Assembly (NCBI GenBank): GCA_044892505.1
Contig: CM097883.1
Location: 290,346,001 to 290,410,000 of the forward strand
DNA: 64,000 nucleotides
Source of the DNA: Schmidtea nova
Taxonomy: Eukaryota
Direction: 5' to 3'
Numbering within the stretch: the stretch's first letter is position 1; every line of letters begins with the position of its first letter. Under the pieces are notes generated by a model. That model ran no database searches and was not told the DNA's origin. It saw nothing but the letters and a program-made list of their open reading frames with translations. This document shows, piece by piece, positions 32,281 through 54,474 of this stretch. A program made the position numbers and the translations under genes.

Positions 32281-32671
32281 AAATAAATTAATATAAAATT
32301 AAAATAAATTAATAAATTAATGTTGGGCCCACCAATTGGTCTAAAAAGGCAAAAATATTGTACTAATTTAAACAATAAATACAAATAATAACCACAAAAA
32401 ACATTCGAAAAACCTAAATTAAAAATTAAAATAAAATAATAAATAATAATTACTAAATTTCCAGCAAAGGAAGAAAATCAAATTGACACGAGAACGAGCA
32501 GTATGGGGGTCTGAAATAAGAAAATTACAAATAAAATCAAATAAAAGTACAATTAATTGGTTAATTACTTGAAAAATCAAGACCACCCAGCGAGAAATCT
32601 GAACCGGAAATTTAAAATGGTTTATATTAAAATAAAATAACAAAATTACTTTGATGGACGGCCTGATCCTG

Positions 32672-32706
32672 ATTGGTCAATCTGACCAACTGGATCAGTA
32701 TAAATA
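32672..32706 (+). promoter_or_regulatory. LTR core promoter: reverse CCAAT (ATTGG 32672-32676) + TATAAATA (32699-32706)
   Basis: Same pair with near-identical spacing in the divergent solo LTR (10276-10280, 10302-10309). Confidence 0.7.
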
Positions 32707-33382
32707 CCGATCCAAAAATCATACAGACAACACCTAACAACTTAGTTACCGAACTGAACTATCATAGTCAACTTTGATACGATAAATACTGTATAAATTT
32801 TTGGAGAACACTGCATCGTGGATTTAAACAGTAAATTTTTTTTTTGTATTGTATTTTGTATTAATTTTTATGATATGTTTCATGATTCCCATTTGTTTTA
32901 TTTTCATTTAATATAATTTATTACTATTGCTCTATTTTTTTTTCTTATGCCATTATTTTATGATATAATAAATATACTTCCTCAGTAGCTTACGCTGCGA
33001 GGGAGCAAGCCGTAAATGTGGGATTTCACCGTTCCACAAGATGGTGAGCAGAGTTTCTATTGGTATTCTTTATTTAATTTAATTTTTTCGGAAGTTTCAC
33101 GGTACGGTAAAGTTGTGCAGGGACAAGGACACGAGTAAAATTTGTAGACAGTGGTTAACATTTACATTCGATCAGACAGGCGAAAACAAACTATAATATC
33201 AATTCTCAGGTCGACTAGATCGATTTTTTCATATACACGCAAATTTTTGTAAATCAACATAGCTGATCGAAATAATGTCCGGACACACCGAGACGATTTC
33301 GACGTTTCAACTACAGTTTAATTTAGACATAAACAACGACATATTCGGATCGACACTACTGATTAAATAAGTAAGATCGTAA

Positions 33383-33454
33383 CCTGATCGCTGTACATAG
33401 CGCAGGTAATAATAGGTAAATTTTTAATATTCCGATCGCTGTACATAGCGACGG
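33383..33454 (+). other. Two stem-bulge-stem-loop hairpins with GTACAT loop (33383-33406, 33432-33454)
   Basis: CCTG-AT-CGCT-GTACAT-AGCG-CAGG and CCG-AT-CGCT-GTACAT-AGCG-A-CGG; three covarying copies in the solo LTR. Confidence 0.8.
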
Positions 33455-33610
33455 TGTTAATTGAATAGTTTGGAAAATATTATTTTTATTTCCTCCTTTT
33501 CACATTTTTTTTTGTGTTATTGATCAACGAGCAGAGCACTTTTTATCAGGTCTCGCCAAAATTTACGGATTTATCACAGTAAAATTCTATTAGCATTATT
33601 ATTTTCGCAG

Positions 33611-34111
33611 ATGAAATCAACGATACTGGATGAATTTCTAACAACTCAACGTCATGTGGCACGGGTCGAAAATCCTCTAATCCGGACGCAACGGAAGAAA
33701 TTGAAGTCGCTTCCACAGGAACTCCTCAGAACGCTAAATGCGTTGATGTATAAATGGAGAAGGGAACTAGGAAAGAAATGCCCATTTTCGATTTGGGCCG
33801 GTGGATTGGATACCATCGTATATCGAGGAGGCCCCGGATGGGAAATTCAGGACGAAAGAGACCGGGAGACGACAGCTCTGTTCATCATAGTGGTGTCAGA
33901 CAGCGAAGGAAATCCAACGACAGTGATCCATTGGGGATATGTCTCACCGCTCAAGTTGCTTAAATTCGGGTTGATTCCGAATCACCTACCGAAAACGTGC
34001 CACGGACGCCCCAAACTAAACTGTTCGATGGCTCACATCCGAAGAAATCCAGTCAATCACGGGTTGCATATTACTCCCGTTCACGGCCTCAAGCGAAGTG
34101 TTTTCCACTAA
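33611..34111 (+). CDS. LTR ORF-A, 166 aa, unknown function (5' LTR copy)
   Basis: ATG directly after TTTTCGCAG; GC-richer than flanks; same protein in the 3' LTR. Confidence 0.65.
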   Translation: MKSTILDEFLTTQRHVARVENPLIRTQRKKLKSLPQELLRTLNALMYKWRRELGKKCPFSIWAGGLDTIVYRGGPGWEIQDERDRETTALFIIVVSDSEGNPTTVIHWGYVSPLKLLKFGLIPNHLPKTCHGRPKLNCSMAHIRRNPVNHGLHITPVHGLKRSVFH

Positions 34112-34296
34112 ACATTATATTCACATTTTTATCAACTAAACGATTTCAATAAATTAAATGGTGTTGATCCGTGTTTTTTGTTTGTCCTTAGTTAAATTTA
34201 TTTCTATTTATTTAATCATATGATTTTTACACTCGACGGATAATATTAATCTTGGTAACATGTTTGATGCATTATAAATTGGGTTTGTTATTTAGT

Positions 34297-34887
34297 ATGA
34301 CGGAAACTAGCCAACAGCGAGAATTGGACAAGGCGTGGAGAATCCGCCGAGCATTGGAAAAGGAGCTAAACCAAGAAAAAGCCTTACGAGCCAAAGCAGA
34401 AGCTCAGATTCAGCATTTACGGACCAGCTGGTTCGCACCAGCTCGCATGAAGGAGCAGATGAGTCGGACGAAAAGGGCTCAAAAGACAGCTGACGATTAT
34501 CGCACCGAATGGGAAGCAACAAAAATTGAGTTGCGCCGATGTCTCCATTCGGTGACGACTTCATTTATCGAGTCCGAATTGAAAGCACAAATCCGACCCA
34601 TTACTTACCAGAAATGGGTAGGAGAACAGAAAGTGGCCTGCTCAGTCAGTACGGACACCGATGGACTCGAGGCAACCACAGTGCAGAGTCGGGTGGAAAC
34701 CCCCACTGTACCAAACCCCGTCGGAAGAACGAATAAGTGGAAACGAATCGGCTCCAAGCGCCGTCGCCAAAGAAAGCTGTTTTCTCAACAATTGCAGACA
34801 CAAGTAACCACTATGGCAGAAATGTCGGAGGCCGAGTGGTTATCAGAGATATTCCCTCCAGAAGGAATTTTCAAAGAATTTCTATAA
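34297..34887 (+). CDS. LTR ORF-B, 196 aa, coiled coil + Arg/Lys-rich motif (5' LTR copy)
   Basis: First ATG at 34297 after TTTAG-T; protein-level conservation with 11467-12048. Confidence 0.8.
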   Translation: MTETSQQRELDKAWRIRRALEKELNQEKALRAKAEAQIQHLRTSWFAPARMKEQMSRTKRAQKTADDYRTEWEATKIELRRCLHSVTTSFIESELKAQIRPITYQKWVGEQKVACSVSTDTDGLEATTVQSRVETPTVPNPVGRTNKWKRIGSKRRRQRKLFSQQLQTQVTTMAEMSEAEWLSEIFPPEGIFKEFL

Positions 34888-35382
34888 CAGATAGAATACG
34901 ATGTCCGATTTGGGAGTCAATTAAATCTTTGCTCGTTTTTGTTTTGTTGTTGTTATTTCCTTTGTATTTCTTTCGATTAAATAATTCATATAATTAAATT
35001 TCAATTACCCGTCACACAACGAAAGGAGTAGCGATAAAAAGAACTTGAATATTATCAAATTCGTAGTTTGGTTCTGCTTGTTTGTTTTGTTTTTTTTTTT
35101 TTTGATAAATACATAGCCTCACACACACAAAATAGAACAAGAATTGCGTAAGTCCTTCTACGGCCGCGTGAACCCGTAAGCATAAAGGGGGAGTAGTCCT
35201 AGCAATAGTGCTCACCTGCCCCTCATTGCTTAACCACCCTGCGCATCACCAACTTGGTTATCAAGGGAAATAATCAAGGGCGCTCGAGTGTAGCTTACGA
35301 CTATTTATGCATGATCATGGATGGGAGATCCCTAGCAATCATTAGAATTTTTACCAAACCGTCCATGAACCCAGCATAAATT

Positions 35383-37577: not shown

Positions 37578-40500
37578 TTGAGAAAAGGAGCAAAGAGTGT
37601 CGCAATAAAGCCAACAAAAAAGCAGAAAGCCGGCAAAGATAACCACAAAAACCCACAAGGGAGTAAAGCGAGGAAAATAATAAGAGATAAATCAATTATC
37701 GAAAACGATAAATTGTCAGTAGTAAGCAACAGCTCAAGTAACAAAGAAAACCAAGCGGAACCCAAGGAGAACCAAACAAGCGAAATAGAAAGCGACGAAA
37801 CTAACAACGATAATATCGAAGAAGTAGAAAACGAGGTAGAACCAGAGGTAGAAACCAACGAGAGTGATAACGAAAGTATAATATCAGATAACATAGTAAT
37901 AAGAGAAACTGAAAGCGATTCAAGCTCGAGTGAAACAGAAGACGAACACAACAACGAATTAGAAACAAGAAGAAACGAAAGGAAAATAACTCAAGACAGC
38001 GGAATTGAAATGAGTGAACCAAGAGAAGAAATAAAGGATAAATTCCCAGGAGAACCATTCAACGGAGATGCGAGTAAATTAGAAATTTTTCTAAAGGAAT
38101 TTGGCATATTCGTGGAAGTATGCAAATGGAAAGCTGAGACAACAGCAAGTAGAATACAGTTATATTTGAAAGATAGCGCATTGGACCTATATTTGGAAGC
38201 AAAAAACGGTACCAATCCACCTACAAGCTGGACAGCGATAAAGGATTTTTTCCAACAAACATTTGGAATAAATAAAGTGCTGAGCGAGGCATTCATAGAA
38301 TTCTCAATGAGGAAACAAAAGATGAATGAATCTAATGCGGTATACGCGAGCGAACTGAAAAAATTAGCAAAATCGGTATTCAAGGATGGAGGTCCAATAA
38401 ACGAGGAGTTAATGGCAGCTATCTTCATAGGAGGACTAAGAAGACCCGACATAAGAGCGCAAGTAGGATGTCAAGGATGCAAAACCATAGATCAAGCGTT
38501 AGAAACAGCTAACCGATTTGAATTGCATATGATAGGGAGCGAAGGCAGAATTTATTTAGCCATGGACACAGCGCAAACCGAACCAGAAATAAATCTCAAC
38601 AATCACATTCCAAATTCGCAACAATTAAACCGACCACCCCCTCAACGAAGGAATGAAGGAAATAAAGCGCAGAACTTTGAAAGCCAAAACAATTACAACC
38701 CTCCAAGACAAACAAAACAATGTAAAACATGCGGGAAGTTAGGACACTGGCAGCAAGAATGCTATCAAAATTTGAATTGCGGAAAATGTGGAGTTAAAGG
38801 ACACTCGGAAAGCAGATGTTCTACAATAATCTGTTTTAATTGCGGACGACCTGGTCACTATTCAAGAAATTGCGGACAAAAAAGTAATCAGCGAGGAAAC
38901 TGGCAGAGTAATGGGAACCGACCAAATTACGGAAATCAAGCAAATACCGTAAACCGACCAGATTATGGAAACCAACAAAACAACAATAACAATAATCAGA
39001 ACAAAACCACCCCCAAAGAAATTCATTTGATGCAAGAAGTTCAAAGGTTGACGGAACTCATAAACAATACGACGAGAGGAAATCCGCAAACCAATCAACA
39101 ACAAATTAGCATGATGAGAAAAATAGAAAGCGAAAACGAACGATTGAATCGAGAAAGTAAAGCACGACACGCTCAGGAATGGGCAAGAATACAAAGAGAG
39201 GATGAACAAAAACAGCAAGAAAGAGAACGACAACCTCTAAGAATTAACATGCTAAGAGCAACAAACCAAACAGACACTCGCGAGAAAGAAATCACACTGG
39301 AAATGAATTCGATAGACCCGAATCCAGCCGACAACGAAAGTCGAAAAGAAATAGTACAAAAAGATGAAGAAGTAGAAAAAGAAGCAGAAAAGGGAGTGGA
39401 AACCGAGATAAACCAGGAAGAGAGGAAAGAGATTTGGAAAAAAGGAATGATGGTAATCATGCCCAACGACCATATGTTTCGATTCCAATATAACGCAAAA
39501 GAAGAAGTGAAAGTATTATTCAACAAAGTAAACCAGATGATTCCAGGAGTAACGAAGCTGCCCAGAGAAGCGTTCTTACAAATAGAGGGTGCACCATCAG
39601 TAAAATTGAAATTAACGGATATATGGGAAAACATGGGAGTAGTAGAAACAAAAAGAAATGTGATGAGAATTAAAGAAATAGAACCAGAAGAAATTCCACC
39701 ACCAATACGTCACGAAACCCGAATCCGGCGAATATTTGAAGGAAAAATGATAAGAAGACGTTTAAAAGAGATAGACGAGTTGGGAAAGAAAATGGAAAAA
39801 GTCGAAGTAATAGAGGACAAGAGTGAACCAACACCAGAAATTGACAAAAACGAACCAGAACCAACGGAGAATATACAAGGAGAAACGAACCAAATAGCAC
39901 ATATTAATATGCTAAGAAATACCACCAGAGAGTTTTCCGATGAAGAAGAAGATAGTGACATCAGTAGCCTAGCAGGAGACATATTAAATGAATCCGAAGA
40001 CGAAAATAAAGAAAGAGAAGTAATAAAGACCTCAGAACCTACACAGATAAAAGTAGATGAAATCCAGAAATTACTAGATAACTCGCTAGAAGTAATATAT
40101 AACGAAGAATTCATGGACAAGAAACAACATCGGAAATTCATGAAAGCATTACTACAAATGAACTACAAAGAATGGTTACAAGAACGGGAGGTAGACATGT
40201 TGAATCGATACGTAGGGAAATTAATAGAGGAACCACTCCTCAATTACACCATCTCAATAATAATAAATACATCTACACCAAGAATCTGGATCAAAACTCC
40301 ATTTACAGACGATATCTACAGATGGGTAGAGGATAGACTAGGGAGCTCATACAAAAACAAATTCATCTATTCGCAGAATAGACTCGTAAAGAAAAGAACG
40401 CACTTAGTAGAAACAGGTATATGGCCAGGAGAAATAACTCTGTTATCAATATGCGATGAAAAGGAAGAAGAGAACCTACAAGAAGTTGCAAGGGAGGCAA

Positions 40501-43007
40501 ACACGTGCTTCGAAAGGAGAATAAAACCTCGGTTAGAATACGAGAAAGAACGAGTCTTACGAAAGAATCTGAATTCCCTGATAGAGCAAATCATACCACA
40601 AGTCAAAAAACATAGAAAGGAGTTAATGAGAAGCGAATACGAGAAATTGAAACAATGTATTGAGTGCATACGTGACACAAGTCACACGAGATGGTCACAA
40701 ATCTCACACGACAAATTAATCGCAAAAATGGGAAAAACAATGTTCAGACAAGGGAAAATAACAGACCTAAAAATTTCAGTGGAATTGCCTAATGAAGACA
40801 CCAAAGAAATTGAAGTAGTAGCGGATTGCACCATTAAAGAATTAATAAATGTCATCAACGAGACACTAGTGCAAAGAGAACCAGAAGACGAATGGGAAGA
40901 CGACATAATCATACAATATAACGAACATGTATTATGGGATCACGATGAAAGACGACTATATAAAATCGGTATATGGGATAATCACCAAACCATCCACGTT
41001 ATCAGAATGGACGATACACCCAGAGAAACTGCTAAAGATGAGAAAAGAGAACGGGAACGACGGAAAGAAGTTGTGCGCAAATTACAACAAATAGTAGACA
41101 TCTATCGAAATTGGCGAATTTGGCCAGAGTGGGAAAATGTATTAGAAGAACTCAATCTCAACAGACGAAGACGAACACCCGTAGAAAAACAATGGAACGA
41201 GAAAGGAAAATGTTGGGTACCAAAGGAAGGGGAATATGAAGAAGAATATGAAAGAGGAATGGAAGATGACTGCGAACCAGAAATGAGAAGGGTTTGCATG
41301 GTGACAAGGAAAGCTACGCCAATAGACCTAGATGGACCAGAAACAGCGGCTATATGGGTAGAAAAGGAAAAGCAAAAAACGGAAGAATTTGTCGAAATAT
41401 TAAAAACTAATGCGCACGGTAAGAGAAAAATAATAAAAGGTCTCGCAGATTTTTTCGTGGTTAATGGAGAAGATATAACATGCTTGCGTAAAGTGGCAAA
41501 GGCAATCGCAGAATATAAAAGAGTTAACGAGTGGTGCCCGGAACAACTAGACCACGTAATTAGGAAATGGAGAAATCAGGAATTCTCGCAGGAAATTCCA
41601 CAAAAAGTGCATTTAAGAATAATATATCCAAACAAGGATAAGGAAGAATTGTGGGTAGGAATAGCAGAAAAAATTCGAGATATTAAAAAGAAATTGAGAT
41701 ACGAACCACCATTCCATTTACAACACCAAGGACGATCATTAAATAACAGTTTGGAAATCGGAATAACGCCAGCACAACTAGATCTCATGAATACCTTGAC
41801 AGTAGAAGCAATAGCAGGTCAACCATTGAAACGCAAAGAAGAAAACCATAAACCACACGGAAGTATAAGTACGCCGAGCCCGATGAAATCAGTACTAACA
41901 CCAGGGACAAGTTCAAGACGATCTGAGACAACACCCAGAGGGAATAGAGAAATGACTCCACCACAACCATACGACGTGGACGAAATTTTAACGGATAGCG
42001 ACGATATGATAGAAGAATTAACCGAATTAACAAAAGAAAAAGACGAGAACATTTTCGAAAGAATACAAGAATTACCTACGACAATACAAGTAACCAACAC
42101 CGGAGAAACAGAAGTCGAAGAAGAAATAATAATAGAAGAAATAAACGATTTGATAGAAGACGAAGCGAGAGGGACGAATGTCGAAAATGTACAATTAACC
42201 CAAGAAATGGAAAGATGGTTAGAAGAAAGAGCTAACGAACCAAGAGATGTCACGGAAGAAACAGGACGAGCAACAAGATTTGTGGAAACGGGTACAGGAA
42301 TGGATAGACGACCTCGAGGTAGACCCAAGACAGATCCGGCAAATGTAGTCATCAGAAATAAGGATGAAAAGAGACAAGATCAATGGGAAGTATGTTTAAA
42401 GAAATTAAATAAAATCGCGGAGATAAAAGAAAAAGAGACAACACCAATACGTCAAGGTGAGGAATGGATATCGAAAACAATAATGGAAATATTGGCAATA
42501 ATTGATCCGGAATTGAAAAAATACTGGCGTATAACTGAGATAAGCGAAAAGGCGAAGTCATTGCACAGCGCAATTGCACCCATCTTACCGGAATTCATAA
42601 AAGAAAAGACGAAGTCAAATCATTTAGACTGGCAAGGAACCACTACGTTAATAAAGAAATTGACAGAAGGAGCGGAAACAGATAACAAATACGTGATAGC
42701 CATTGCATACACCATCTACAACCTACTAACACTGAGTAGAGGTCGACCAAAACCCACTGCGTTGGAAAGACACATAAAAAATACCGCAAAAATTATAGCC
42801 AGAGAAATAGAACCATACATCATTAACAAAGGAGGATGGGAAACATTTATAAAAACTAACCAGAAGAAAACACAAGCCAAGAATATGAAAAAAGAAATTC
42901 GAAAAAATATTGGAAGAGTTAGGAAAAGAACAAGCAGGAACAAGAAACGCGAAGTCATCAATGAATTTGAGTTCTATAATAATGATGATGTTGATATGGA
43001 TGATTAG
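37578..43007 (+). CDS. gag: Extended Gag polyprotein (capsid, 3 x CCHC knuckle, 2-3 ubiquitin-like folds, AT-hook, Bcl-2-like C-terminus)
   Basis: PFNGDASKLEIFLKEF..W...IQLYLKDSALDLY capsid motif; CX2CX4HX4C x3 at 38721-38873; frame open from 37545, first ATG at 38010. Confidence 0.9.
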   Translation: MRKGAKSVAIKPTKKQKAGKDNHKNPQGSKARKIIRDKSIIENDKLSVVSNSSSNKENQAEPKENQTSEIESDETNNDNIEEVENEVEPEVETNESDNESIISDNIVIRETESDSSSSETEDEHNNELETRRNERKITQDSGIEMSEPREEIKDKFPGEPFNGDASKLEIFLKEFGIFVEVCKWKAETTASRIQLYLKDSALDLYLEAKNGTNPPTSWTAIKDFFQQTFGINKVLSEAFIEFSMRKQKMNESNAVYASELKKLAKSVFKDGGPINEELMAAIFIGGLRRPDIRAQVGCQGCKTIDQALETANRFELHMIGSEGRIYLAMDTAQTEPEINLNNHIPNSQQLNRPPPQRRNEGNKAQNFESQNNYNPPRQTKQCKTCGKLGHWQQECYQNLNCGKCGVKGHSESRCSTIICFNCGRPGHYSRNCGQKSNQRGNWQSNGNRPNYGNQANTVNRPDYGNQQNNNNNNQNKTTPKEIHLMQEVQRLTELINNTTRGNPQTNQQQISMMRKIESENERLNRESKARHAQEWARIQREDEQKQQERERQPLRINMLRATNQTDTREKEITLEMNSIDPNPADNESRKEIVQKDEEVEKEAEKGVETEINQEERKEIWKKGMMVIMPNDHMFRFQYNAKEEVKVLFNKVNQMIPGVTKLPREAFLQIEGAPSVKLKLTDIWENMGVVETKRNVMRIKEIEPEEIPPPIRHETRIRRIFEGKMIRRRLKEIDELGKKMEKVEVIEDKSEPTPEIDKNEPEPTENIQGETNQIAHINMLRNTTREFSDEEEDSDISSLAGDILNESEDENKEREVIKTSEPTQIKVDEIQKLLDNSLEVIYNEEFMDKKQHRKFMKALLQMNYKEWLQEREVDMLNRYVGKLIEEPLLNYTISIIINTSTPRIWIKTPFTDDIYRWVEDRLGSSYKNKFIYSQNRLVKKRTHLVETGIWPGEITLLSICDEKEEENLQEVAREANTCFERRIKPRLEYEKERVLRKNLNSLIEQIIPQVKKHRKELMRSEYEKLKQCIECIRDTSHTRWSQISHDKLIAKMGKTMFRQGKITDLKISVELPNEDTKEIEVVADCTIKELINVINETLVQREPEDEWEDDIIIQYNEHVLWDHDERRLYKIGIWDNHQTIHVIRMDDTPRETAKDEKRERERRKEVVRKLQQIVDIYRNWRIWPEWENVLEELNLNRRRRTPVEKQWNEKGKCWVPKEGEYEEEYERGMEDDCEPEMRRVCMVTRKATPIDLDGPETAAIWVEKEKQKTEEFVEILKTNAHGKRKIIKGLADFFVVNGEDITCLRKVAKAIAEYKRVNEWCPEQLDHVIRKWRNQEFSQEIPQKVHLRIIYPNKDKEELWVGIAEKIRDIKKKLRYEPPFHLQHQGRSLNNSLEIGITPAQLDLMNTLTVEAIAGQPLKRKEENHKPHGSISTPSPMKSVLTPGTSSRRSETTPRGNREMTPPQPYDVDEILTDSDDMIEELTELTKEKDENIFERIQELPTTIQVTNTGETEVEEEIIIEEINDLIEDEARGTNVENVQLTQEMERWLEERANEPRDVTEETGRATRFVETGTGMDRRPRGRPKTDPANVVIRNKDEKRQDQWEVCLKKLNKIAEIKEKETTPIRQGEEWISKTIMEILAIIDPELKKYWRITEISEKAKSLHSAIAPILPEFIKEKTKSNHLDWQGTTTLIKKLTEGAETDNKYVIAIAYTIYNLLTLSRGRPKPTALERHIKNTAKIIAREIEPYIINKGGWETFIKTNQKKTQAKNMKKEIRKNIGRVRKRTSRNKKREVINEFEFYNNDDVDMDD

Positions 43008-46000
43008 CACCGATAGCGCAACAGCGTTCGAAGTGTTTGATTGCGACCAAATGAAGTTAGGAGAAAAGTATTCATTGAGAGGCACGGAGCAATGCAAAGA
43101 TGCAACTCCAGTAGAGTTGCAAAAGATTAAAAAGGAACAATGGTACCACGTGTATCAAGAAGCAGAACTCATAAAGACAATGGTGAATGAATGTAAGGTG
43201 CAGAAGACGAGATTCGCATTCTACTGCGGGAGAGGACATTATTCAGCAATTGTCATGCCAGGAACGGAAAGAGAACCAATCGTGTTACAAGGAGAGGACT
43301 GCGAAGCACTGTTTAAACATGGAGAAGTAACAACAAGAGATAAAATCAAGATAAAAGGAAAGCCAGGAATGATGATGCAACAGACGTACTATGTAGCAGG
43401 ACGGATTACGGGAGGAGAAGGATATTGTCAAGGAGAAACCTACCCGATGTTCGGAACACTCGCAACCAACTTAGTGGTGATGGATACGTATATAGTCGAA
43501 CTAAAAAGCTATGAAGCATTCTTCGAACCCACAACGGGAGAAATGAAAACGTTATCCATGTGTAAAATCGACAGGACCATGTGTCAAACGGGAATGTCAA
43601 CATTAGTGTACAAACCAAAGGTGAACGAATGTCAATTACAACTGCTACAAGGAGCAAAGTTCGACGAAATCCAAGGAAAAACGTTCCAGGAAGAAGACGA
43701 TGACGACAAAGCTAGAGCAAAGCATCTCAAGGAAGCTTTAGAGAATAAAAGACAACTGAAACCAGATCATAGAGAAAAACGGATAGAGATGAGAGCCACA
43801 CCAACAGTGTTGATAACCACAAATCAGGATGTGGGAATGAGGTTCATAAAAGGGAAAGCAACCCTTAAGTGTAGTACAACGGTATACGAAACGAATTATC
43901 CAGGAATATATGTGTCAAAACAAGAAGTGCCAAATGCGAAACCCAAAATCGACACAATGGATATCAAACTACACCTATATGTGAATAATAAAATGGATTT
44001 CCTATTCCATAGAGGACAAGCCTCATTACAAAAAGTGTACTACGATCTGATAAACAATGATTGTATATTGAATCGAGAAATATTAAAGACAAAGTTGGCC
44101 GTAGCAATTACGAATCCAGATAGCGCGATGCCATTATTACCACTGAGAGAAGGACATTTCGGAAGAGTGGTTGGAGAAGCAATGTATGTATACATTTGTG
44201 AAAAGACACACGCATCGCTAGCAGCAACAACACAGTTGAAACCTGGAACCTGTACAAATGAGTTAGAAATCGACTACAAAGGAAAAGTACGATACGTTCA
44301 ACCAGTGACGAGAATCATCAATCCACCAGGGTTTGAACCAAATCCATTCAACTGTAGTAATGCGTATGGACCACTTTATCAGAAACCAGATGGTAAATGG
44401 GTTATGTTCCCAGGAAGATCCGAAGTGATAGCACCAAGAGAATTCGAGCTAATGCAGTTGTCAAAGGATAGGCAATTCAGCGACGTAGATGTCTCAAACA
44501 ACGGAATATATAGTCCAAAGGATTTAGAAGCAGCAAGGCAGAATATATTATTTCCAGCGAGAAGAGAAGCATTACTGTCAAATATCGTAACGATAACGGG
44601 AGGAACGGATTATCGAGAAGGACCGAATTACGAACTGTTGTTGTCACCAGCACATTTCAAGAAAGCCACGGAAAATATGATGAAAGCCATGTGGGGAAGA
44701 TTCCTGATATTTGGACAAATGATGGCGGGAATACTGGGGGTCATATTAATAATCCAAATCGTCAGAGTAATAATAACGCAAATGTTAGCGTGTTTCGATA
44801 TATACAAGAGGGAAAAGAAAGTGAATTGGAAAATGGTAGTAGGGTTTTTACCATTCCTTGCGAAAACAATGGTGTTGCATGGACACTCAAAAGATATCCA
44901 CCGAATAAAAAGACTCCTAAAGATACTAGCAAAAATGAAGGGAACAGATGAAGAAGTAGGACGAAAATTTAAAAAGATAATGAATGACGAACAAGCAAGA
45001 CAACAGCTCAAGAGAGAAAGAAAAGGTTTATGGGAGAGGGTGAAAGGATATAAAACCCAAAATGATTCGAGCGACGACGATGATGACGACGACGACTATA
45101 AGGGAGGACAAGTGTACAAGAACCAAGCACCACGATACATCGAAAAGAATCCAGCCGACGCATGGAAATGTTACGCACCTCCGCCAACAATGTATCAAGA
45201 ACCACTACAAGGAGAAAAAAATAGCACGATGCAAATGATGCCAATGACAAATGTATACCCCATGATACCAGAAGATTATAAAATGAGAAGATGTAGAAGT
45301 GTAGATCCACAAGGAGACGCACATACAATCGCCGTAATGTCATCAAACACAGGTCCAGTACTAACCACGACAATAGAGATTAACGGAAGAGAAATCGAAG
45401 CAATGATCGACACTGGAGCAAACATTTCCGCCATCGACATCAAATGGATACCACAGGAGCAAAGACGAGAAATAGAAAGGACAAACGTCCATGTAATTGC
45501 ATGTAGCAAAGAAGTTGTAGAAGTAGCAGGAAGATGGTGGGTAAAAATACGCCACTTAAATACAGAAATCGATACGTACGTAGCAGTCATACCAGCATTA
45601 AGCGTACCTTGCATTATCGGAACAGATTTGATGCCAGCGTTATTTAAAGAAATCGTAATCGATCTCGGAACAATGAGATTAAAGGATCGCACCGGACAAA
45701 TATGCGCAATAGAAGCCAAAGTAACGAGTTCAAAGCAAATGATAATACCGGCAAGAAAGGAAAAAATATGTTACGTAAAAATAGATCCGACAATCCAAGG
45801 CGATATGATTTTCGAACCAAGTAAGAGATTCGAGAAAAGAAAAGCGTTGCCAATGGCAAGAGGACTAGTCAACATAAACAATAATGGGGAAATCCCAATA
45901 AACGTAGTAAATTTCGACGAGGAGGACAAGATAATATACGAAAACGAAAGATTAGGTAAATTAACCCCAATGATGGATATCGAACTACCAATAGCAGGGG

Positions 46001-49000
46001 CAGAGAAAGATAAAGAACCAACCTGGAATATTGATAGTGAATTATTAAATGAGGATCAAAGGAAGCAGCTAGAAAAACTCCTGATAGAGTATAAGGATAT
46101 ATTTGCAGCATCCGATTTAGATCTAGGAACATGTGATGTCACGTTACATACGATACCATTAACCGACGAAACACCAATTGCATTAAGACCATACAAATTA
46201 GCAGAAGCACAGAAAGCAGTAGCGGAAGCAGAAGTGAAGAAAATGTTGGATGCAGAAGTAATCGAACCAAGTTGTTCACCCTGGCAATTTCCAGTAGTAA
46301 TGGTAAAGAAGAAAGACGGAACACAGAGATTCTGCATAGATTATCGAAGATTGAATACAGTGACAAAACGAGATACTTACCCATTACCAGACATCAACGA
46401 AATGCTACTAACATTACAGGGAGCAGCATATTTTACATCGCTAGATCTGAAAAGCGGATACTGGCAAATAAAAATGAAGGAAGAAGATAAAGAGAAAACT
46501 GCCTTTACCATCGGTAGAGACCTATATCAATTTCGAAAGATGCCCTTTGGATTAACAAACGCACCAGCATCATTTCAGAGATGCATGAATTTCGTCACCC
46601 ATGGAATAAAGCAGTGTATGGTCTACATCGACGATTTATTAATCTACTCTAGCACGTTTGAACAGCACATACAGGATATTCGAGATGTATTCGTTAGACT
46701 TAGACAATGGAAGTTAAAACTCAAGCCATCCAAGTGTGATTGGGCGAAAGAGAAAGTAACATTTTTAGGACATATAGTGTCAGCAAAAGGAAAAGAACCG
46801 GATCCTAGAAATATCGACAAAGTAAAGGAATGTCCAGTACCAAAAACAATAACCCAGATACAAGAATTTCTTGGACTATGTGGATATTATAGAAAGTTTA
46901 TAAAAGATTACGCCGGAATAGCAAAACCTATACAGGAACTAGTAAAGAAAGATGTATCCTTCATATGCGGAGACGAACAACAAACAGCTTTCGAGACATT
47001 AAGAGATAAACTGATAACCGCACCCATATTGGTACACCCAGACTTCAAGAAGCCATTCTTACTTGAAACAGACGCAAGCGGATATGCAGCAGGAGCAGTA
47101 TTAGGACAATACGACGATGAAGGAAAAGAACGCGTAATCGGATATTATAGCCGGACATTCAAAAAGCATGAGAAAAATTACTCAGTAACCGAGCGAGAAG
47201 CGTTAGCAATCATACTAGCAATTAAACACTTTAAATATTTATTATGGGGACACATCATCTGTATAACCACAGATCACCAACCGCTTGTGTGGTTAGGACA
47301 ACATAAGGAAACCTCCAGTAGATTAATGCGATGGGCAATGCAGCTACAGGAGTACTCACCAGACATAAAATTTAAATCAGGACGAGCGAATGCGAATGCA
47401 GACTGTATGTCCAGACTGACATTTCCGGAATTAACCGACCCGGATGTACAACGAATTTGTGTATTAATAGCAGAAGATTTAGATTTTAGTGAGTTAAAGA
47501 AAGATCAACAGGAAGACAGAGAGTTAGGACAGATCATAGAGTTCCTAACATCTCGAAATATGGAGGTATTCAAAGATAATAAAGAATTAAAGGAACATAT
47601 AGGAAAATATCAACATCGATATATAATAAATAAAGGATGGTTATTGATACAAGACGGTGAAAAGAGGCTGATGTGTTTACCGGAAAACAGAAGGAAAGAG
47701 ATAATGATCCAATACCACGATGGGAAATTAGGAGGTCATATGTCAGAGAAAAAGACAATAAATCGGATGAGACAGAAATATTATTGGCGAACAATGGAAG
47801 AAGATATAAAAGAATGGATTAAAAATTGCCTAACCTGCGCAACTAGAAAGGATAGTGGGAAGAAATGGAAGAACCCGCTACAACCAATGCCGATACCAGC
47901 AGAGCCAATGACAACTATAGCAATGGACGTAATAGGACCATTACCAGAAAGTTTAAACGGAAATATTTATATATTGGTAATAACGGATTATCTGACGAAA
48001 TTCCCGGAAGCATTTGCCATGCAAGATCAAAAAGCAAAAACCGTAGCAAAAATTTTGGTAGAAGAAATATGTTGCAGATACGGAACTCCAAAACAAATAC
48101 TCACAGACCAAGGAACTAATTTTATGAGCGAGCTATTGAACGAGGTAACAAACTATTTCAGAATAGCAAAATTGAGAACTTCACCATATCACCCGCAAAC
48201 GAATGGACAAACGGAGCGATTCAATGGTACATTGATCAGAATGTTATCAAATTACGTCAGCAGACATCAGACTGATTGGGACGAATATATAAAATTATGT
48301 TTAATGGCATACCGAATGTCGATACATGCAGCAACAAAACTAAGCCCATTTCAACTTATGTATGGAAGAGAATGCAACATGCCCATAGATTTAGAGTATC
48401 AACCACCATTATCGCAATATATGGAAGACGACGACTACATAACCAAATTCAAAGAAAGGATGCAGGAAATATGGAAAACGGCAGAACTCAACATTAAATT
48501 TTATCAGGAAAGTTATAAGGATTTACACGACCAGAAGAAAAATGTTAAAGCGAACGACCTAAAACCAGGAGATTGGGTGATAATAGAAACTCCCGAAATA
48601 ATACCAGGAACTGTTAAGAAACTCCAAAGACCTGGAAGAGGACCTTATGAAATTATATACAAAAAGGACAACAATGTCAAAGTTAAGCTAATAAATCGAC
48701 CGTTAATACGACCCATATATGTAAACACCTGCAGATGTAAGAAGGTGCCTAAAACGATAACTACAACACCAGAGAATCGAATAATAACCAGATCACAAAC
48801 AGCCAGGATAAATATGCTCAGAGCTAACGCAACTGAAGACGACAAAGCAGAAATAAGGCAAAAGGAAATCAGAAATAAAGAAATCATATTGAAGGCGAGA
48901 GAGATAATGGGAAGATGGCATGTTAGAGACGAAGCAGGCATATCAAGGGATATTAGACATATAATTAGCCGTTACGCACAAGGATTACCAACCGAACCAA

Positions 49001-52000
49001 TTATTTCTGAATTATTGGAAAAAATCCCTGAAATACTCTTATTGAAAGATGTAGGAGGACAACCAGCCTTACATAATGCGATAGAGTGTAAAAACATTGA
49101 AAGAGCAAAAGAATTCCTAAAAATCGCAAAAGAAACAAACCAAAACTTGGACGTAGGGAATCGGGAACAAGAAACTCCATTAATGACAGCCGCAATCCAC
49201 CAAGCAGATAAAGAAATGATAGAGCTATTGATAAAAGCCAATTTCAGTTGGACAGAACGAGATAGAGAAGACAAAACAGTCTTAAGTCACGTAATATGGA
49301 GTTCACACAAACTAATGCTGAAACATATAATCGCAAACGCCACATGGGAAATAGACGAATTAATAAAAGGAGACATTATCAAAGAAGCAATCAAAATTGG
49401 GAAATGCGACACGATCCGTAAGTTGATCAAATGGAAACGACCAGAAGAGGATACATGGGTCTTAGACATAAACGAAGTATACAGCGAAGGACAAAACGCG
49501 CTGTTAAGATATCTTCTGAAATTTACTTGTGATCAGAAGACATTACTAACTTTATTAGACAGAGGAAACATAAACATCACAAAAAATGAAGAAGAATACA
49601 AATTCGATAAAGAAAAGGAGGCCTTATTCAACAAGATTAGGAAATGGTGTGCGAAACCACTTGATAAGTTAATAACCTACAAAGACATAAACAATTTTAA
49701 CGAGAAATACCAGATGATAGTAAGTGAGTATGAGGAATTAGTTAAAATCTTAAACCATCCCGAAAAATGCAAACAGGTTTTAGAGAAAAAAGAAAGAGAA
49801 AGTAACAAGAAACTCACACCACTCTTTAAAGCAGAAGCACCATACCAAGCTAGACTAGATGCGATACAAGAAAAAGCAAAAGAACTGTTACCGGAATTCG
49901 AAAATAGTAAACATGCACTGGAAATACTCGGCGCATTAGTTGAAAAAGTACACGCATACGCAAAAGGAACATACAATGGTAACGACATAACAACTATAAA
50001 AAAGGAGATGCCAGTAACATTTTTACTACCAAAGGACGGAATAATGCCCATACATAGAGCTTTACGAAATGGCAAAGATAGAAAAGTAATGGAAATTGCA
50101 CGAATAATGCTAAACTGCGGAAGCAACATGAATATGGTAGACGAGAAAGGAGATACACTCATGATATTTGCAGCAAGGGCCAAAACGAAAACAAAAGTGT
50201 TGGAAGAACTATACAAAGCAGGTGCAGGACTTACAGGAAAAACAGATAAAGATAATTCAATTCTGGATGTAGCATTACTAACACATAATTGGGAAATGGT
50301 CAACTTCATTAAAACAATCTCAAATCAGGAAGAAATAGATTACCTAACTGATACGGTCAGGAAACCCAGTGTACTAACAATGATGCATAATGTCGAACTA
50401 ACAGAAGCAATACTTACGTGGATAAATCCGAATACTAACGAACCAGCATTCAGGATTAATGAGTTTACAGAACATAACCAAAATTGGTGCATAAGAAGTG
50501 CCTTAATAACGTATAAATGGCCAGAGATATTGAAGATGTTTATGGAAAGAAAGGATCTAAGGATCACAACCAGCCCGAAGGAAGAAAAGTACACAGGCAA
50601 ATGGAAAGAATTGATGAAGACATACATCAACAATTGGATCAAGGCCAAAAAGGAAATCTTAGAATATAAATCCACTAACAAAGTAATACCAGAACAGGTA
50701 GAAACACAAGAGTTTGAGGCAAGTAATCTAACGACATTAGCGTATGCGAAACTAATAGAAGAAATCAATGTCGAGGACGACATTTTCGACGAGCCAGGGG
50801 GAGATGACAATACAGATAGTGACGACGGTAACAACTCAGAAAATTCAAACGATCACGAACCACCCGATAAAGAGGAAAACGAGAGAAAAGACAAGAAACG
50901 AGACAAGGAAGAAAAGAAAAGTAAAGACGAAAAACAAAGAGATGAAGAGGGAGAACAAGGAAAAAACGACCAAGGAGATAAAAATGACACCCAAAGAACA
51001 GGTTATAAATCAACCATAAAACCATTCTTCAAACCAGAATTACTATTATTAACAGTGATTTTAACGTTAATTAACCCAAGTCAAGGAATGACATGTGAAG
51101 AAAGGGCAATAATACAAATAAAAAACGCGAAAGGAATCGAACGAGTATGTTGGTCAAAAAAGGACAAAATCACGGAACAAAATAGTCCGATGGATTGCAG
51201 AATCTCAAAACACGAGCAAGAGATCATAGAGATCAATGACCTAGATCTAAATACCTGGTACAAAATATGCACCATTAGAAAACAAAAGCATCCAAGATCA
51301 CACAACACAATCGCATGTGCAAAATACCAAACACCTAAAGCAGCCATGACAATACAACAGTCACCCAAAGGAGATTACATCCTCGGAAAATGTGGAAGAA
51401 CAGAGACACAGGGAACAGAAAACAAAAAACCCCAGGCAACAGATAAGCAAACAACACCAACCCTACGAATTACAATAGAGAGGCCTGAAGCAAGAGTTGC
51501 CACAAACGAAACCGAAAGAGTGTCCTACCAAATGGAAGTATTATGTTTAGCACTCATACTAATAATGATAAAACGATTAGAGGAAGGAATAGAAATTGAA
51601 ACTATGACAATAACAGAAGTAGAAGATACACAGAATACTAACATAAAATGTTGGGCGAGGAATAACGAGGAAATCGGCGTAAACGAAATAAGGAAAAGTC
51701 GAAAACTAACAACGAATAAAGTAATTAAAATATCCGAAGTAAAAGCAGATAAGACGTACAAACTATGCCTACTAGAAAAAGAAACGAACAAGAAAGGTAC
51801 CACAAAATGTAAAACATTTCAACCTGGAGAGGTAATAAAGTTCAGAAGGAGAACGAGGAAGAGAAATAAACAAATCAAGCGGAAAGTAAACATAACATTA
51901 GAAATAAAAGAGATAGAACCAAATGTGAAAGGAGTATGCTGGAGGAAGTACGAAAAAGAAGTAAATAAAAGAACGACACCACAATGTCGAACAAACACAG

Positions 52001-54474
52001 GAACAACGACGATTCAAATAAAAGGTTTAGAAAGTAAACAAACCTACGAAATATGTTTGGTAAAGAAAAATGATCAGATAACGGTAAACGACCTGGAATG
52101 CGGAATATATACAACTTCATCCGGAACAAGAACCAAAACGTTAACACGGAAAAATAAAAGGAAACAACAAAACAAAGGAAAACCGAAGTACACCACTACC
52201 TTTAAAAACAATAAACAACCAACAAACCAAGAAGTTACGACGAAACCCGAGAGAAAAACATCAGCAACTCTAACATTATGGAAAATAGAGAATAAAACAT
52301 TGGAAATATGTTGGATAATAGTACAGAAACATATAAGAAGACAATCAAGAGAGTGCAGAAAAACAAATAAAGAAATCAAGATCGAAAAACTACAATTTAA
52401 TAGTGAGTACGAAGTATGCGCAATAGAAATAATGGACGCACTAAGAAACCAACAAGAAAGATGCGAAACCTACTATACACCAGTAAACGCGACATCAAAA
52501 GGAATAACAAGGAAACTCGAATTCAGGGAACTAAGCCAAACGAATGAACAAATGGACGCAGAAAAAATAATAATCGACCCTCAAGCAAAATGGACACCTG
52601 AAGAAGTTATCAAAGAAGTCAAAAGAAAGCAAGAGGAACGAGAACAATTAATGAGAAAACTAAAGGGACAATACGGAATAATGTTCAACCAAAGCGAACC
52701 TATACAAACAGACGAGAATAAAGAAATTAAAGAACTAATCGGCTTAGGAATATTAACAGCAACCATACCAGTAATAATCGCGTTATCAGCTATATGGATA
52801 CGCAAGATAAGCCCAAGAAAATCAACAACCCAATGGCTAAATATAGATAATACAAGCCATGGAGTAGAAATACTAGAAGAAAAAGCACGAGAAGAACCAA
52901 ATAAGAAAGAAGCGAAAAGCGGAAAACTAGGAATAAACAACAAAGACAAGGAAATAAAAGAGATTAAAGGCGAAGAGAAAAAATATGAAAGGCGAACCAG
53001 AAGCCTACCGCAGAGTTCAAAATGGTTGGGTCTAACAATAATATTGACATTAATCAATAGGGAAGAAGCAACAAACCTACAAGCAGGGATAAAAATAGTA
53101 AATGTCCAGGAGGTCGAGAAAATATGCTGGAATAGAGAGGATGAACCAATTGGGAAAGATAACCCACTAAAATGCATAATCAGAAAATCCGACCAGGATA
53201 TAGTACGAATAGAAGGGATGGATAGAGGAATCATGCATCGAATATGCATAATAGGAAAGGAAAAGAAGTCGGGGCTACCTAAGACAGTCGTATGTCAAAA
53301 ATACGAAACGCCTGGACTCGAATGGTATAGAGTAAAACCAACAAAGAAAGAAATCAAAAACACCATAGATCAACCAGCAACTCAGATAAGAAACACAACG
53401 GATAAACCAGGAGAAGGAGAGAAAAGCACCAATAAAACGAGAGAAAGAATATCACCCCAACAGGAGTGCGTATGCATAGCATTAATACTAGCAATGTCCA
53501 AACGTATCGATAAAGGAATAATAATAGAACAAATGGCCATAACAATAAGGAAAACAAGTAGCAACAAACTATGCTGGGGAACATACAACGAACCAAGGAA
53601 GGAATACCAAGTTCAGACAAGCGACGAATCACGAACAAACAAGGAAATCGAAATACAAGAAATACAAATGAATGAAGAAGGAAGTATATGTATCTGGGAG
53701 AAAGGAATCCAAGAGGGAATAGAGCATTGCAAGACATTCCAAAAAGGAGAGATACTGAAATTCGATGAAGAAGAATTAACAAAGACAGAAAGAACTCTGA
53801 CATTAACAGGACTCGATCAGACAGTTAAAGGAATATGTTGGACAAAGCATAACCCAGAAGGGGAAGAAGACAACCTAACCCACTGTAAAGAAATAAAGAA
53901 TAAAGAAAAAGTCGAATTAAAGAAAATGGAAGTAAATAGGACATACGCGATATGTACCTTCACCAGAAAAGGTTCAGAAAAACCAGAATGCGGATTATAT
54001 CAGATCTCAGAGAAACTACAACAACAGATCGAACCAGGAAACGTGGAAAACCGAACAAAAGAAAATAACGTCAAACAACTACTAAACCGCCATTGGTCTA
54101 TACAAGAAGTAATGAACAAAGTTAAGAGTCAAATACAGAAAGAGAAGAAGCCAGAGGCTCAAACCCAAAATGGGATAAAAGCGAACCAGAATAAAAGAGA
54201 AACAAACAGTGGAAAACCAATAATAGGATTAATCAGTATAGGAATATTAATAGCATATGGAATACTGACGACAAGCATAATAGTATATTGGAGATACAGA
54301 AGGAGAAACAAAGCAACAGCCATACAATGGCCAGATATTAAAATTATGAAACAAAAAATAGAAATACCAGAAGAGATACAGCAAGAATTCCAAAGAAGAA
54401 CGAAAGGTAAAGAATTCTGGAAACAAATAGAAGATGAAGAACGATACGAGGAAAAGACGATAATGATGGTATAG
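42961..54474 (+). CDS. pol: Env-Pol-accessory polyprotein: chuvirus-like glycoprotein, PR, RT, RNase H, integrase, ankyrin repeats, FN3-like membrane modules
   Basis: Signal peptide from ATG 42961; TM ~44701-44775; DTG 45409; YIDD 46624; TDASG 47068; HX6H..CX2C 47716; D,D,E (AMDVIG, TDQGTNF, ERFNGTL); GPY; no stop in 11.5 kb; +1 frame relative to gag with overlap to 43007. Confidence 0.95.
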   Translation: MNLSSIIMMMLIWMISTDSATAFEVFDCDQMKLGEKYSLRGTEQCKDATPVELQKIKKEQWYHVYQEAELIKTMVNECKVQKTRFAFYCGRGHYSAIVMPGTEREPIVLQGEDCEALFKHGEVTTRDKIKIKGKPGMMMQQTYYVAGRITGGEGYCQGETYPMFGTLATNLVVMDTYIVELKSYEAFFEPTTGEMKTLSMCKIDRTMCQTGMSTLVYKPKVNECQLQLLQGAKFDEIQGKTFQEEDDDDKARAKHLKEALENKRQLKPDHREKRIEMRATPTVLITTNQDVGMRFIKGKATLKCSTTVYETNYPGIYVSKQEVPNAKPKIDTMDIKLHLYVNNKMDFLFHRGQASLQKVYYDLINNDCILNREILKTKLAVAITNPDSAMPLLPLREGHFGRVVGEAMYVYICEKTHASLAATTQLKPGTCTNELEIDYKGKVRYVQPVTRIINPPGFEPNPFNCSNAYGPLYQKPDGKWVMFPGRSEVIAPREFELMQLSKDRQFSDVDVSNNGIYSPKDLEAARQNILFPARREALLSNIVTITGGTDYREGPNYELLLSPAHFKKATENMMKAMWGRFLIFGQMMAGILGVILIIQIVRVIITQMLACFDIYKREKKVNWKMVVGFLPFLAKTMVLHGHSKDIHRIKRLLKILAKMKGTDEEVGRKFKKIMNDEQARQQLKRERKGLWERVKGYKTQNDSSDDDDDDDDYKGGQVYKNQAPRYIEKNPADAWKCYAPPPTMYQEPLQGEKNSTMQMMPMTNVYPMIPEDYKMRRCRSVDPQGDAHTIAVMSSNTGPVLTTTIEINGREIEAMIDTGANISAIDIKWIPQEQRREIERTNVHVIACSKEVVEVAGRWWVKIRHLNTEIDTYVAVIPALSVPCIIGTDLMPALFKEIVIDLGTMRLKDRTGQICAIEAKVTSSKQMIIPARKEKICYVKIDPTIQGDMIFEPSKRFEKRKALPMARGLVNINNNGEIPINVVNFDEEDKIIYENERLGKLTPMMDIELPIAGAEKDKEPTWNIDSELLNEDQRKQLEKLLIEYKDIFAASDLDLGTCDVTLHTIPLTDETPIALRPYKLAEAQKAVAEAEVKKMLDAEVIEPSCSPWQFPVVMVKKKDGTQRFCIDYRRLNTVTKRDTYPLPDINEMLLTLQGAAYFTSLDLKSGYWQIKMKEEDKEKTAFTIGRDLYQFRKMPFGLTNAPASFQRCMNFVTHGIKQCMVYIDDLLIYSSTFEQHIQDIRDVFVRLRQWKLKLKPSKCDWAKEKVTFLGHIVSAKGKEPDPRNIDKVKECPVPKTITQIQEFLGLCGYYRKFIKDYAGIAKPIQELVKKDVSFICGDEQQTAFETLRDKLITAPILVHPDFKKPFLLETDASGYAAGAVLGQYDDEGKERVIGYYSRTFKKHEKNYSVTEREALAIILAIKHFKYLLWGHIICITTDHQPLVWLGQHKETSSRLMRWAMQLQEYSPDIKFKSGRANANADCMSRLTFPELTDPDVQRICVLIAEDLDFSELKKDQQEDRELGQIIEFLTSRNMEVFKDNKELKEHIGKYQHRYIINKGWLLIQDGEKRLMCLPENRRKEIMIQYHDGKLGGHMSEKKTINRMRQKYYWRTMEEDIKEWIKNCLTCATRKDSGKKWKNPLQPMPIPAEPMTTIAMDVIGPLPESLNGNIYILVITDYLTKFPEAFAMQDQKAKTVAKILVEEICCRYGTPKQILTDQGTNFMSELLNEVTNYFRIAKLRTSPYHPQTNGQTERFNGTLIRMLSNYVSRHQTDWDEYIKLCLMAYRMSIHAATKLSPFQLMYGRECNMPIDLEYQPPLSQYMEDDDYITKFKERMQEIWKTAELNIKFYQESYKDLHDQKKNVKANDLKPGDWVIIETPEIIPGTVKKLQRPGRGPYEIIYKKDNNVKVKLINRPLIRPIYVNTCRCKKVPKTITTTPENRIITRSQTARINMLRANATEDDKAEIRQKEIRNKEIILKAREIMGRWHVRDEAGISRDIRHIISRYAQGLPTEPIISELLEKIPEILLLKDVGGQPALHNAIECKNIERAKEFLKIAKETNQNLDVGNREQETPLMTAAIHQADKEMIELLIKANFSWTERDREDKTVLSHVIWSSHKLMLKHIIANATWEIDELIKGDIIKEAIKIGKCDTIRKLIKWKRPEEDTWVLDINEVYSEGQNALLRYLLKFTCDQKTLLTLLDRGNINITKNEEEYKFDKEKEALFNKIRKWCAKPLDKLITYKDINNFNEKYQMIVSEYEELVKILNHPEKCKQVLEKKERESNKKLTPLFKAEAPYQARLDAIQEKAKELLPEFENSKHALEILGALVEKVHAYAKGTYNGNDITTIKKEMPVTFLLPKDGIMPIHRALRNGKDRKVMEIARIMLNCGSNMNMVDEKGDTLMIFAARAKTKTKVLEELYKAGAGLTGKTDKDNSILDVALLTHNWEMVNFIKTISNQEEIDYLTDTVRKPSVLTMMHNVELTEAILTWINPNTNEPAFRINEFTEHNQNWCIRSALITYKWPEILKMFMERKDLRITTSPKEEKYTGKWKELMKTYINNWIKAKKEILEYKSTNKVIPEQVETQEFEASNLTTLAYAKLIEEINVEDDIFDEPGGDDNTDSDDGNNSENSNDHEPPDKEENERKDKKRDKEEKKSKDEKQRDEEGEQGKNDQGDKNDTQRTGYKSTIKPFFKPELLLLTVILTLINPSQGMTCEERAIIQIKNAKGIERVCWSKKDKITEQNSPMDCRISKHEQEIIEINDLDLNTWYKICTIRKQKHPRSHNTIACAKYQTPKAAMTIQQSPKGDYILGKCGRTETQGTENKKPQATDKQTTPTLRITIERPEARVATNETERVSYQMEVLCLALILIMIKRLEEGIEIETMTITEVEDTQNTNIKCWARNNEEIGVNEIRKSRKLTTNKVIKISEVKADKTYKLCLLEKETNKKGTTKCKTFQPGEVIKFRRRTRKRNKQIKRKVNITLEIKEIEPNVKGVCWRKYEKEVNKRTTPQCRTNTGTTTIQIKGLESKQTYEICLVKKNDQITVNDLECGIYTTSSGTRTKTLTRKNKRKQQNKGKPKYTTTFKNNKQPTNQEVTTKPERKTSATLTLWKIENKTLEICWIIVQKHIRRQSRECRKTNKEIKIEKLQFNSEYEVCAIEIMDALRNQQERCETYYTPVNATSKGITRKLEFRELSQTNEQMDAEKIIIDPQAKWTPEEVIKEVKRKQEEREQLMRKLKGQYGIMFNQSEPIQTDENKEIKELIGLGILTATIPVIIALSAIWIRKISPRKSTTQWLNIDNTSHGVEILEEKAREEPNKKEAKSGKLGINNKDKEIKEIKGEEKKYERRTRSLPQSSKWLGLTIILTLINREEATNLQAGIKIVNVQEVEKICWNREDEPIGKDNPLKCIIRKSDQDIVRIEGMDRGIMHRICIIGKEKKSGLPKTVVCQKYETPGLEWYRVKPTKKEIKNTIDQPATQIRNTTDKPGEGEKSTNKTRERISPQQECVCIALILAMSKRIDKGIIIEQMAITIRKTSSNKLCWGTYNEPRKEYQVQTSDESRTNKEIEIQEIQMNEEGSICIWEKGIQEGIEHCKTFQKGEILKFDEEELTKTERTLTLTGLDQTVKGICWTKHNPEGEEDNLTHCKEIKNKEKVELKKMEVNRTYAICTFTRKGSEKPECGLYQISEKLQQQIEPGNVENRTKENNVKQLLNRHWSIQEVMNKVKSQIQKEKKPEAQTQNGIKANQNKRETNSGKPIIGLISIGILIAYGILTTSIIVYWRYRRRNKATAIQWPDIKIMKQKIEIPEEIQQEFQRRTKGKEFWKQIEDEERYEEKTIMMV

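Follow-up and report, generated by a model that had tools for sequence, protein, structure and literature searches.

Covarying stem-bulge-loop RNA hairpins arrayed in the LTRs of a giant planarian retrotransposon, and what might read them

The LTRs of a giant retrotransposon in the planarian Schmidtea nova carry short arrays of an RNA hairpin, and our comparison of many copies leaves little doubt that this hairpin is real: it is a covarying stem-bulge-loop of the plus-strand RNA, well supported as a structure. As for its purpose, we lean tentatively, and knowing that we could well be wrong, towards the idea that the array is a multivalent platform for a host protein that recognises RNA shape and, once docked, would restrain both splicing and polyadenylation in the LTR. 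The analysis started from a single window, by which we mean the whole 64,000-nucleotide stretch under study (contig CM097883.1, positions 290,346,001 to 290,410,000); all features located in it below lie on its plus strand unless stated otherwise.

Seven hairpin copies are found in the window, all in LTRs, and they score 30-40 bits with a covariance model. Two forms occur: type I has a lower stem, a 2-nt bulge starting with A, a 4-bp stem and a GUANAU loop, and type II a 1-nt A bulge and a 5-bp stem. The 5′ LTR of the main element carries one of each (type I at 33382..33407, 39 bits; type II, the last of the array, at 33432..33454), and both are duplicated in the 3′ LTR (59519..59544 and 59569..59591), while the solo LTR of a sister family has two type I hairpins (11211..11233 and 11265..11288) and a type II (11325..11347). 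A preliminary description had already reported five of these, and they do sit where it placed them, with the stems and loop it gave, the 3′ LTR pair being additional. The five are not the independent copies that it took them for, since they come from two sister LTR families and the hairpins at 33432 and 11325 share the same array position and the same upper stem. Its 2-nt 5′ bulge is right for the non-terminal hairpins but wrong for the last one, with its single bulged A and longer stem; the loop that it wrote as GTACAT (GUACAU in RNA) is indeed kept at five positions, but is properly GUANAU with position 4 free. The motif TGTACATA has 10 matches in the window against 2.8 expected, a number equalled in none of 100 shuffles. 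Folded one at a time, the hairpins do not gain much over shuffled sequences (z -0.8 to -2.6); the structure is proved by comparison.

That comparison was made genome-wide. A pattern that specifies the lower stem, the bulged A and the loop but puts no constraint on the upper stem matches at 4442 places, and its reversed form at 34; when the loop is left free, the counts are 4426 and, for the control, 15. Covariation was assessed in 52 stretches along one contig (C1), chosen by position, 49 of which were kept as LTR loci once an unpaired chance match (L122) and two copies of an unrelated repeat (L141, L142) had been dropped, and the free-stem pattern recovers 106 hairpins in 47 of these 49. Among the 424 upper-stem cells, 396 are Watson-Crick, 17 G·U, 3 A·C and 8 other, so that 413 pair, with all four pairs changing on both sides, which bears out the earlier claim that the stems covary; the balance of G·U over A·C favours the plus-strand RNA. 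Indeed, the four upper pairs, the fifth pair (T-A 28 times and C-G five times in type II stems) and the lower stem (CTG/CAG, CCG/CGG, CGG/CCG and TCG/CGA) all covary. The eight upper-stem variants seen at least twice are paired at 32 of 32 positions where shuffling gives a mean of 23.1 and reaches as high once in 20000, a figure uncorrected for the relatedness of the copies; an additional tally (45 of 62) is inflated, its variants having been hand-picked and pre-filtered for pairing, and is illustrative only. Against these variable stems stand an invariant bulge and loop: when the lower part is left free, 118 of 127 bulges start with A, and loop positions 1, 2, 3, 5 and 6 are G, U, A, A and U in 97-102 of 102, with position 4 divided between C (46), U (35), G (16) and A (5). 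The loop is probably a G·U pair closing four bases.

Several simpler identities were tried and rejected along the way. A kissing-loop dimer signal fails on the free loop position 4, a CFIm UGUA site on its first U, which is a covarying stem base, and a minus-strand look-alike after ORF-B (12076-12100) is more simply UGUA in the 3′ UTR. No Rfam family matches the hairpins (best E 0.59, far below gathering scores), the two-hairpin pattern returned nothing from metagenome contigs, and the loose hairpin pattern gave 121 loci in viral contigs, none with a full hairpin. Three loci (L091, L106 and L128) have an extra type II-like hairpin upstream of the array, its stems and bulged A intact and its loop different, with A at position 3.

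The element that carries the window's main array is, on its sequence, a 29-kb LTR retrotransposon, Burro-like and env-bearing. Its 5′ LTR (32321..35376, 3.06 kb, TG..CA) is followed by a primer-binding-site-like stretch near 35383 and matches the 3′ LTR (58458..61500, the end running into N) over 3044 nt at 99.8%. In between, a Gag ORF and an env-protease-RT-RNaseH-integrase-ankyrin ORF occupy 38010..54474, with RING and TRAF/MATH ORFs besides; in the long ORF a viral fusion glycoprotein domain precedes the protease, RT, RNase H, integrase and ankyrin repeats. Between 37460 and 38010, before Gag begins, an acceptor-like sequence near 37484 and an open frame of 155 codons that lacks an ATG suggest that Gag is made from spliced RNA. 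The giant gypsy-like planarian elements Burro and GYPSM1 are similar, with a length of about 29 kb, env between gag and pol, thousands of copies and a cargo of ankyrin, TRAF/MATH and RING domains (PMC6431247); the window element differs in its LTR-encoded genes and RNA elements, of which the accessible part of that account makes no mention. The solo LTR of the sister family (9904..12601), recognised as such in the preliminary description, does have TG..CA ends and a TTAT target-site duplication on both sides. In two loci elsewhere (L156 and L163, C1 at 44.44-44.47 Mb), the LTR cassette proteins are only 30-37% identical to those of the window and the internal RT is 97-99% identical, a mosaic suggesting that LTR modules are exchanged between elements.

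From its conserved signals we infer that each LTR is a small spliced, self-terminating gene, made up of a promoter, a short exon, an intron of 0.7-1.3 kb, ORF-A and/or ORF-B and a poly(A) signal, with the array at the 3′ end of the first intron. In the window's 5′ LTR, a conserved core with a reversed CCAAT box and a TATA box (32669..32706, TATA at 32699-32706; 2199 matches, none in the control) would be the promoter, and the predicted donor of intron 1, with a U-rich tract after it, is at 32831..32838. In many families the TATA box (window 32692-32718) lies within the loop of a short inverted repeat. Directly after the last hairpin come a pyrimidine tract and a predicted acceptor AG (33480..33610, AG at 33609-33610), then ORF-A (33611..34111, 166 aa, of no convincing family), ORF-B (34297..34887, 196 aa, with its own predicted acceptor at 34294-34295) and candidate poly(A) signals (ATTAAA twice, 34976..34998). 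ORF-B, which has long helices, a basic motif and an acidic-hydrophobic tail, is encoded by all LTRs in the window, ORF-A additionally by those of the main element; the ORF-B of the solo LTR (11467..12048) is 42% identical to the main element's over 170 aa.

The same anatomy recurs across the sampled LTRs. Arrays consist of one to four hairpins spaced 37-67 nt apart, about 680-1250 nt downstream of the TATA motif, their first hairpin at some 680-1180 nt from it, and they obey a simple grammar in which type II is the last hairpin in 36 of 40 multi-hairpin arrays and none of 74 non-last hairpins. A donor-like site with a U-rich tract follows the TATA motif by 89-274 nt; in 60 LTRs there are 48 ATGs before it and 208 in the same length after it, a count biased by the donor having been picked for U-richness. 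The array had been placed upstream of an acceptor at 33610, and this holds up well, since the acceptor is conserved: the start codons of 31 of 31 ORF-Bs (background 52 of 297) and of 15 of 16 ORF-As (background 23 of 159) are preceded by a YAG at a distance of 0-5 nt. In 23 of 49 LTRs a pyrimidine tract (at least 13 of 15) lies no more than 65 nt beyond the array, none of the 49 having one upstream of it, and the first ORF starts 63-298 nt from the last hairpin in 30 of 37, the other seven being farther away. Of 44 copies, 42 have AATAAA after ORF-B where 25 would be expected, the window's own subfamily having ATTAAA in its place. Reads of four sequencing runs, whose depth peaks at the shared promoter and the LTR end and which contain no canonical splice joints, look genomic and are uninformative on expression. 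Masking of a donor by the 3′ arm of the hairpin was considered and rejected, CAG|GT being present only in some subfamilies.

The 5′ part of the predicted intron has features of its own. A double hairpin (window 32977-33050) is present in both array-bearing and array-less families. Its first member has one bulge and a stem of 5 bp, and its second closes, in many copies, with a donor-like G|GTGAG. The solo LTR family contains the double hairpin two to three times over (10524-10730), and it is a possible ORF-B target. Some 60-150 nt after it, several families (window 33112-33130; L148, L158 and L196) have a short linear motif, TGCACATRGGG.

If the LTR is a small spliced gene with its own poly(A) signal, the element has two outputs to decide between, a short spliced LTR transcript and a read-through RNA that retains the intron, and an array upstream of a conserved acceptor would mark the latter. 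Splicing to a terminal exon and use of the poly(A) site within it are coupled. In the explanation that we tentatively prefer, one host protein would read the bulged A and the loop on several hairpins at once and hold back the adjacent predicted acceptor, and by terminal-exon coupling the predicted LTR poly(A) site behind it would be held back too, so biasing the choice between spliced LTR transcript and read-through RNA; alternatively, the array might mark intron-retaining RNA for export. In favour of a host protein we count the covariation around an invariant bulged A and loop, the array grammar, the position and the distribution among families. The argument for a host factor in particular is that in known viral protein-hairpin pairs the RNA drifts with its protein, whereas here identical hairpins are found in families whose ORF-Bs are 44% and NCs about 70% identical; RNA that does not drift with the element's own proteins points to a constant host ligand.

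Several facts count against a host-protein reader. One is a large, young family (clade 3) found in a second LTR sample drawn by promoter core instead of hairpins: it has at least 150 copies, with ORF-A and ORF-B intact in most of those seen, and near-identical RT, and it lacks the array, nothing above 10 bits appearing in any of 16 loci searched by covariance model with filters off. The array is thus not essential to this type of element. Hairpins are also missing from 21 loci of older families, a weak piece of evidence, as these families have decayed so far that no more than 6 of 20 loci retain remnants of ORF-B. In addition, the adjacent pyrimidine tract is confined to fewer than half of the LTRs, the window's two 5′ LTR hairpins can cross-pair and reach pair probabilities of only 0.52-0.58 in longer context, there is the want of an Rfam match, and a perfect Pumilio match in most of the hairpins must be partly coincidence.

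That match deserves to be taken seriously, and it was the preliminary description's reason for the motif. On this proposal, intron-retaining RNA would be repressed or localised by host Pumilio, which would melt the upper end of the stem to bind UGUANAUA; the 3′ LTR copy has the sequence as well. The full 8-mer, with its UGUA core and free N, is present in 88 of 106 hairpins (75 with N = A, C or U), a perfect site is kept at least once in 46 of 49 LTRs, and most hairpins have the favoured G at +1. Unpairing the 8-mer costs a computed 2.3 kcal/mol or so. Host Pumilio, read from four exons, has the repeats SRQ, NYQ, CRQ, NHQ, CRQ, NYQ, SNE and NYQ, which we take to be the canonical code for UGUANAUA. 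The single free loop base corresponds to the free position 5 of the Pumilio response element (PRE), as the sources present it (PMC13692250, 10.1101/403006), and PREs in the loops of viral RNAs are described as binding PUM (PMC13692250). In the 3′ loops of the herpesvirus RNAs HSUR1 and HSUR2 the same UGUANAUA is shown at the hairpin tip of a viral RNA (PMC13692250); the difference is that here positions 1 and 8 form a covarying stem pair, and the 18 of 106 hairpins without the element keep the loop all the same.

It is this pair that defeats Pumilio as the sole reason for the motif. PUM2 is reported to prefer the consensus base at each position (10.1101/403006, PMC6521599) and to bind less well when the RNA is structured (10.1101/403006), but motif positions U1 and A8 covary as U-A in 88 hairpins, G-C in 10, C-G in seven and G-U in one (n = 106), and the pair is no more conserved than other stem pairs. 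Genome-wide, with the loop free, 936 hairpins have G-C or C-G at positions 1 and 8 (control 3), and among the 100 of these listed, all paired there, 97 keep GUANAU in a count by eye, which means that the loop is under selection where no PRE exists. Moreover, the cost climbs to about 6 kcal/mol once one more base at the side has to be unpaired, and a single-strand binder would require neither the bulged A, the stem length nor the type I/II grammar. We therefore consider the full Pumilio proposal improbable, although worth keeping in mind: Pumilio cannot be the whole explanation of the hairpins, and may bind most of them as a second partner of whatever reads their shape.

Just as doubtful, in our judgement, is a Rev/Rex- or Tat-like pair, in which ORF-B, made early from the spliced LTR transcript, would bind the array through its basic motif and switch output to unspliced read-through RNA. 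Bulged, short-stemmed RNAs such as TAR and boxB are bound by arginine-rich peptides, cyclin T1 joins Tat on TAR, and HTLV has a comparable retroviral pair in Rex and RxRE. ORF-B is certainly well placed, lying 0.1-1.1 kb downstream of the array in the same LTR and in nearly all hairpin LTRs sampled, and its basic motif, predicted to be helical, has 10-11 K/R in 21 residues in 24 of 24 copies scored. The bulge and short stem would suit an arginine-rich peptide as in the RRE (PMC4488727). HIV Rev/RRE, as set out in that source (PMC4488727), resembles the present case in having a structured element on intron-retaining RNA and a small, early, basic-motif protein from a nearby spliced transcript, although the RRE is one 350-nt fold and here there are short repeated hairpins. 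Array and ORF-B fall together on one side of a long branch in a quick ORF-B tree (hairpins within 1400 nt in 33 of 36 rows, against 0 of 16 on the other), but this split is a single event among physically linked parts and no proof of co-evolution.

Set against the pairing are the persistence of ORF-B with its basic motif in array-less families, ORF-B being present without the array in all 16 clade-3 loci, and a motif with six arginines in one and three in the other of two families sharing identical hairpins, the most (8-10) being in an array-less family. A leucine-rich export signal is likewise not conserved in ORF-B, with 7 of 24 copies against 13.5 by shuffle, which is a further difference from Rev. 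The predicted structure has two long helices, a disordered linker and a basic helix. With that basic helix after a long coiled region and its acidic-hydrophobic tail, ORF-B might not bind RNA at all but activate transcription from the LTR. Sequence searches found no relatives of it outside the host genome, and neither did structure searches (Atlas best 0.89; Foldseek none). ORF-A, whose predicted model is too poor for use (pLDDT 48.5), was rejected as the ligand because it is missing from the sister family, which has the array.

The preliminary description also offered the array as a packaging signal for Gag, and we now think this distinctly unlikely. Gag NC or Pol would select the genome through the array in the manner of phage operators or retroviral psi, and there are attractions to this: only the predicted intron-retaining RNA would carry the array, which is downstream of the predicted major donor just as psi sits downstream of the major splice donor in retroviruses, and a bulged A with a small loop is the shape of a coat-protein operator. 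Array presence does not follow Gag, however. One array-less element is 90% identical to the window element in CA, 88% in NC and 97-99% in RT, whereas two array-bearing sister-family elements, whose hairpins are the same, reach 82% in CA and 69-72% in NC. In the families compared, then, the array tracks neither Gag nor the basic motif of ORF-B. Nor, given the free loop position, could the 21 of 102 loops with G or A there kiss through self-complementarity. A better candidate for a packaging or dimer signal is a block of about 160 nt near the LTR end (window 35145-35300; solo LTR 12358-12552), common to array-bearing and array-less families; it has 1669 exact pattern matches, no Rfam match and two-sided changes at 14 of 39 predicted pairs in 19 copies.

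Less probable again is a protein-free splicing brake, in which the stems bury branch-point-like CUGAU words, the bulged A being the branch A, just before the pyrimidine tract. The bulge context fits YUNAY in 75 of 123 hairpins and a pyrimidine tract does come after the array, but the U at -2 is missing from 21 of 49 terminal hairpins and masking of a branch point leaves the invariant loop unexplained. Palindromic factor sites in the DNA or a neutral tandem repeat, suggested by the short inverted repeat that also flanks the TATA box of these LTRs, are very improbable and already largely refuted by the asymmetric bulge, the sequence-free stems, the preponderance of G·U over A·C and the divergent spacers.

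Comparison with other known systems is instructive as to shape. HIV TAR, as the preliminary description noted, is similarly built, with a lower stem, a 5′ bulge, a 4-bp upper stem and a six-base loop, and the array would likewise lie in the predicted R region; TAR has a U-led bulge and stands at +1 of its transcript, whereas here the bulge is led by A, the loop is unrelated and the promoter is 0.7-1.2 kb away, so that a TAR function, which would need the 5′ end, is not supported. The bulged-A operators of MS2 and PP7, the iron-responsive element and lambdoid boxB are short hairpins that serve as protein handles, and they share with ours a short stem, a single bulge and a small fixed loop in repeated use, although no sequence relation is shown and nothing in Rfam matches above chance. 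In the literature surveyed, including the accessible parts of PMC8532177, PMC11410931, PMC13524379, PMC4488727 and PMC8579622, neither the hairpins themselves nor a Rev-like system was found described for elements of this kind, and cis-acting RNA control of giant Burro-like elements appears to be undescribed.

What gives these hairpins their importance is the question they serve. Where the LTR would itself be a spliced gene, full-length RNA has somehow to get past both splicing and a premature poly(A) site, and a motif of 22 nt that covaries throughout, exists in thousands of natural copies and is missing from some families lends itself readily to testing how this is done. An unlikely but appealing answer, by analogy, is that an env-bearing invertebrate retrotransposon evolved its own Rev/RRE-like switch in the LTR, with ORF-B on the array, and possibly Pumilio on the loops, turning on unspliced genomic RNA. 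To our knowledge there is no Rev-like protein outside vertebrate retroviruses, and ORF-B would be the first, if true. The ligand would be a new structure-specific host RNA-binding activity, an unusual use of Pumilio or such a Rev-like protein.
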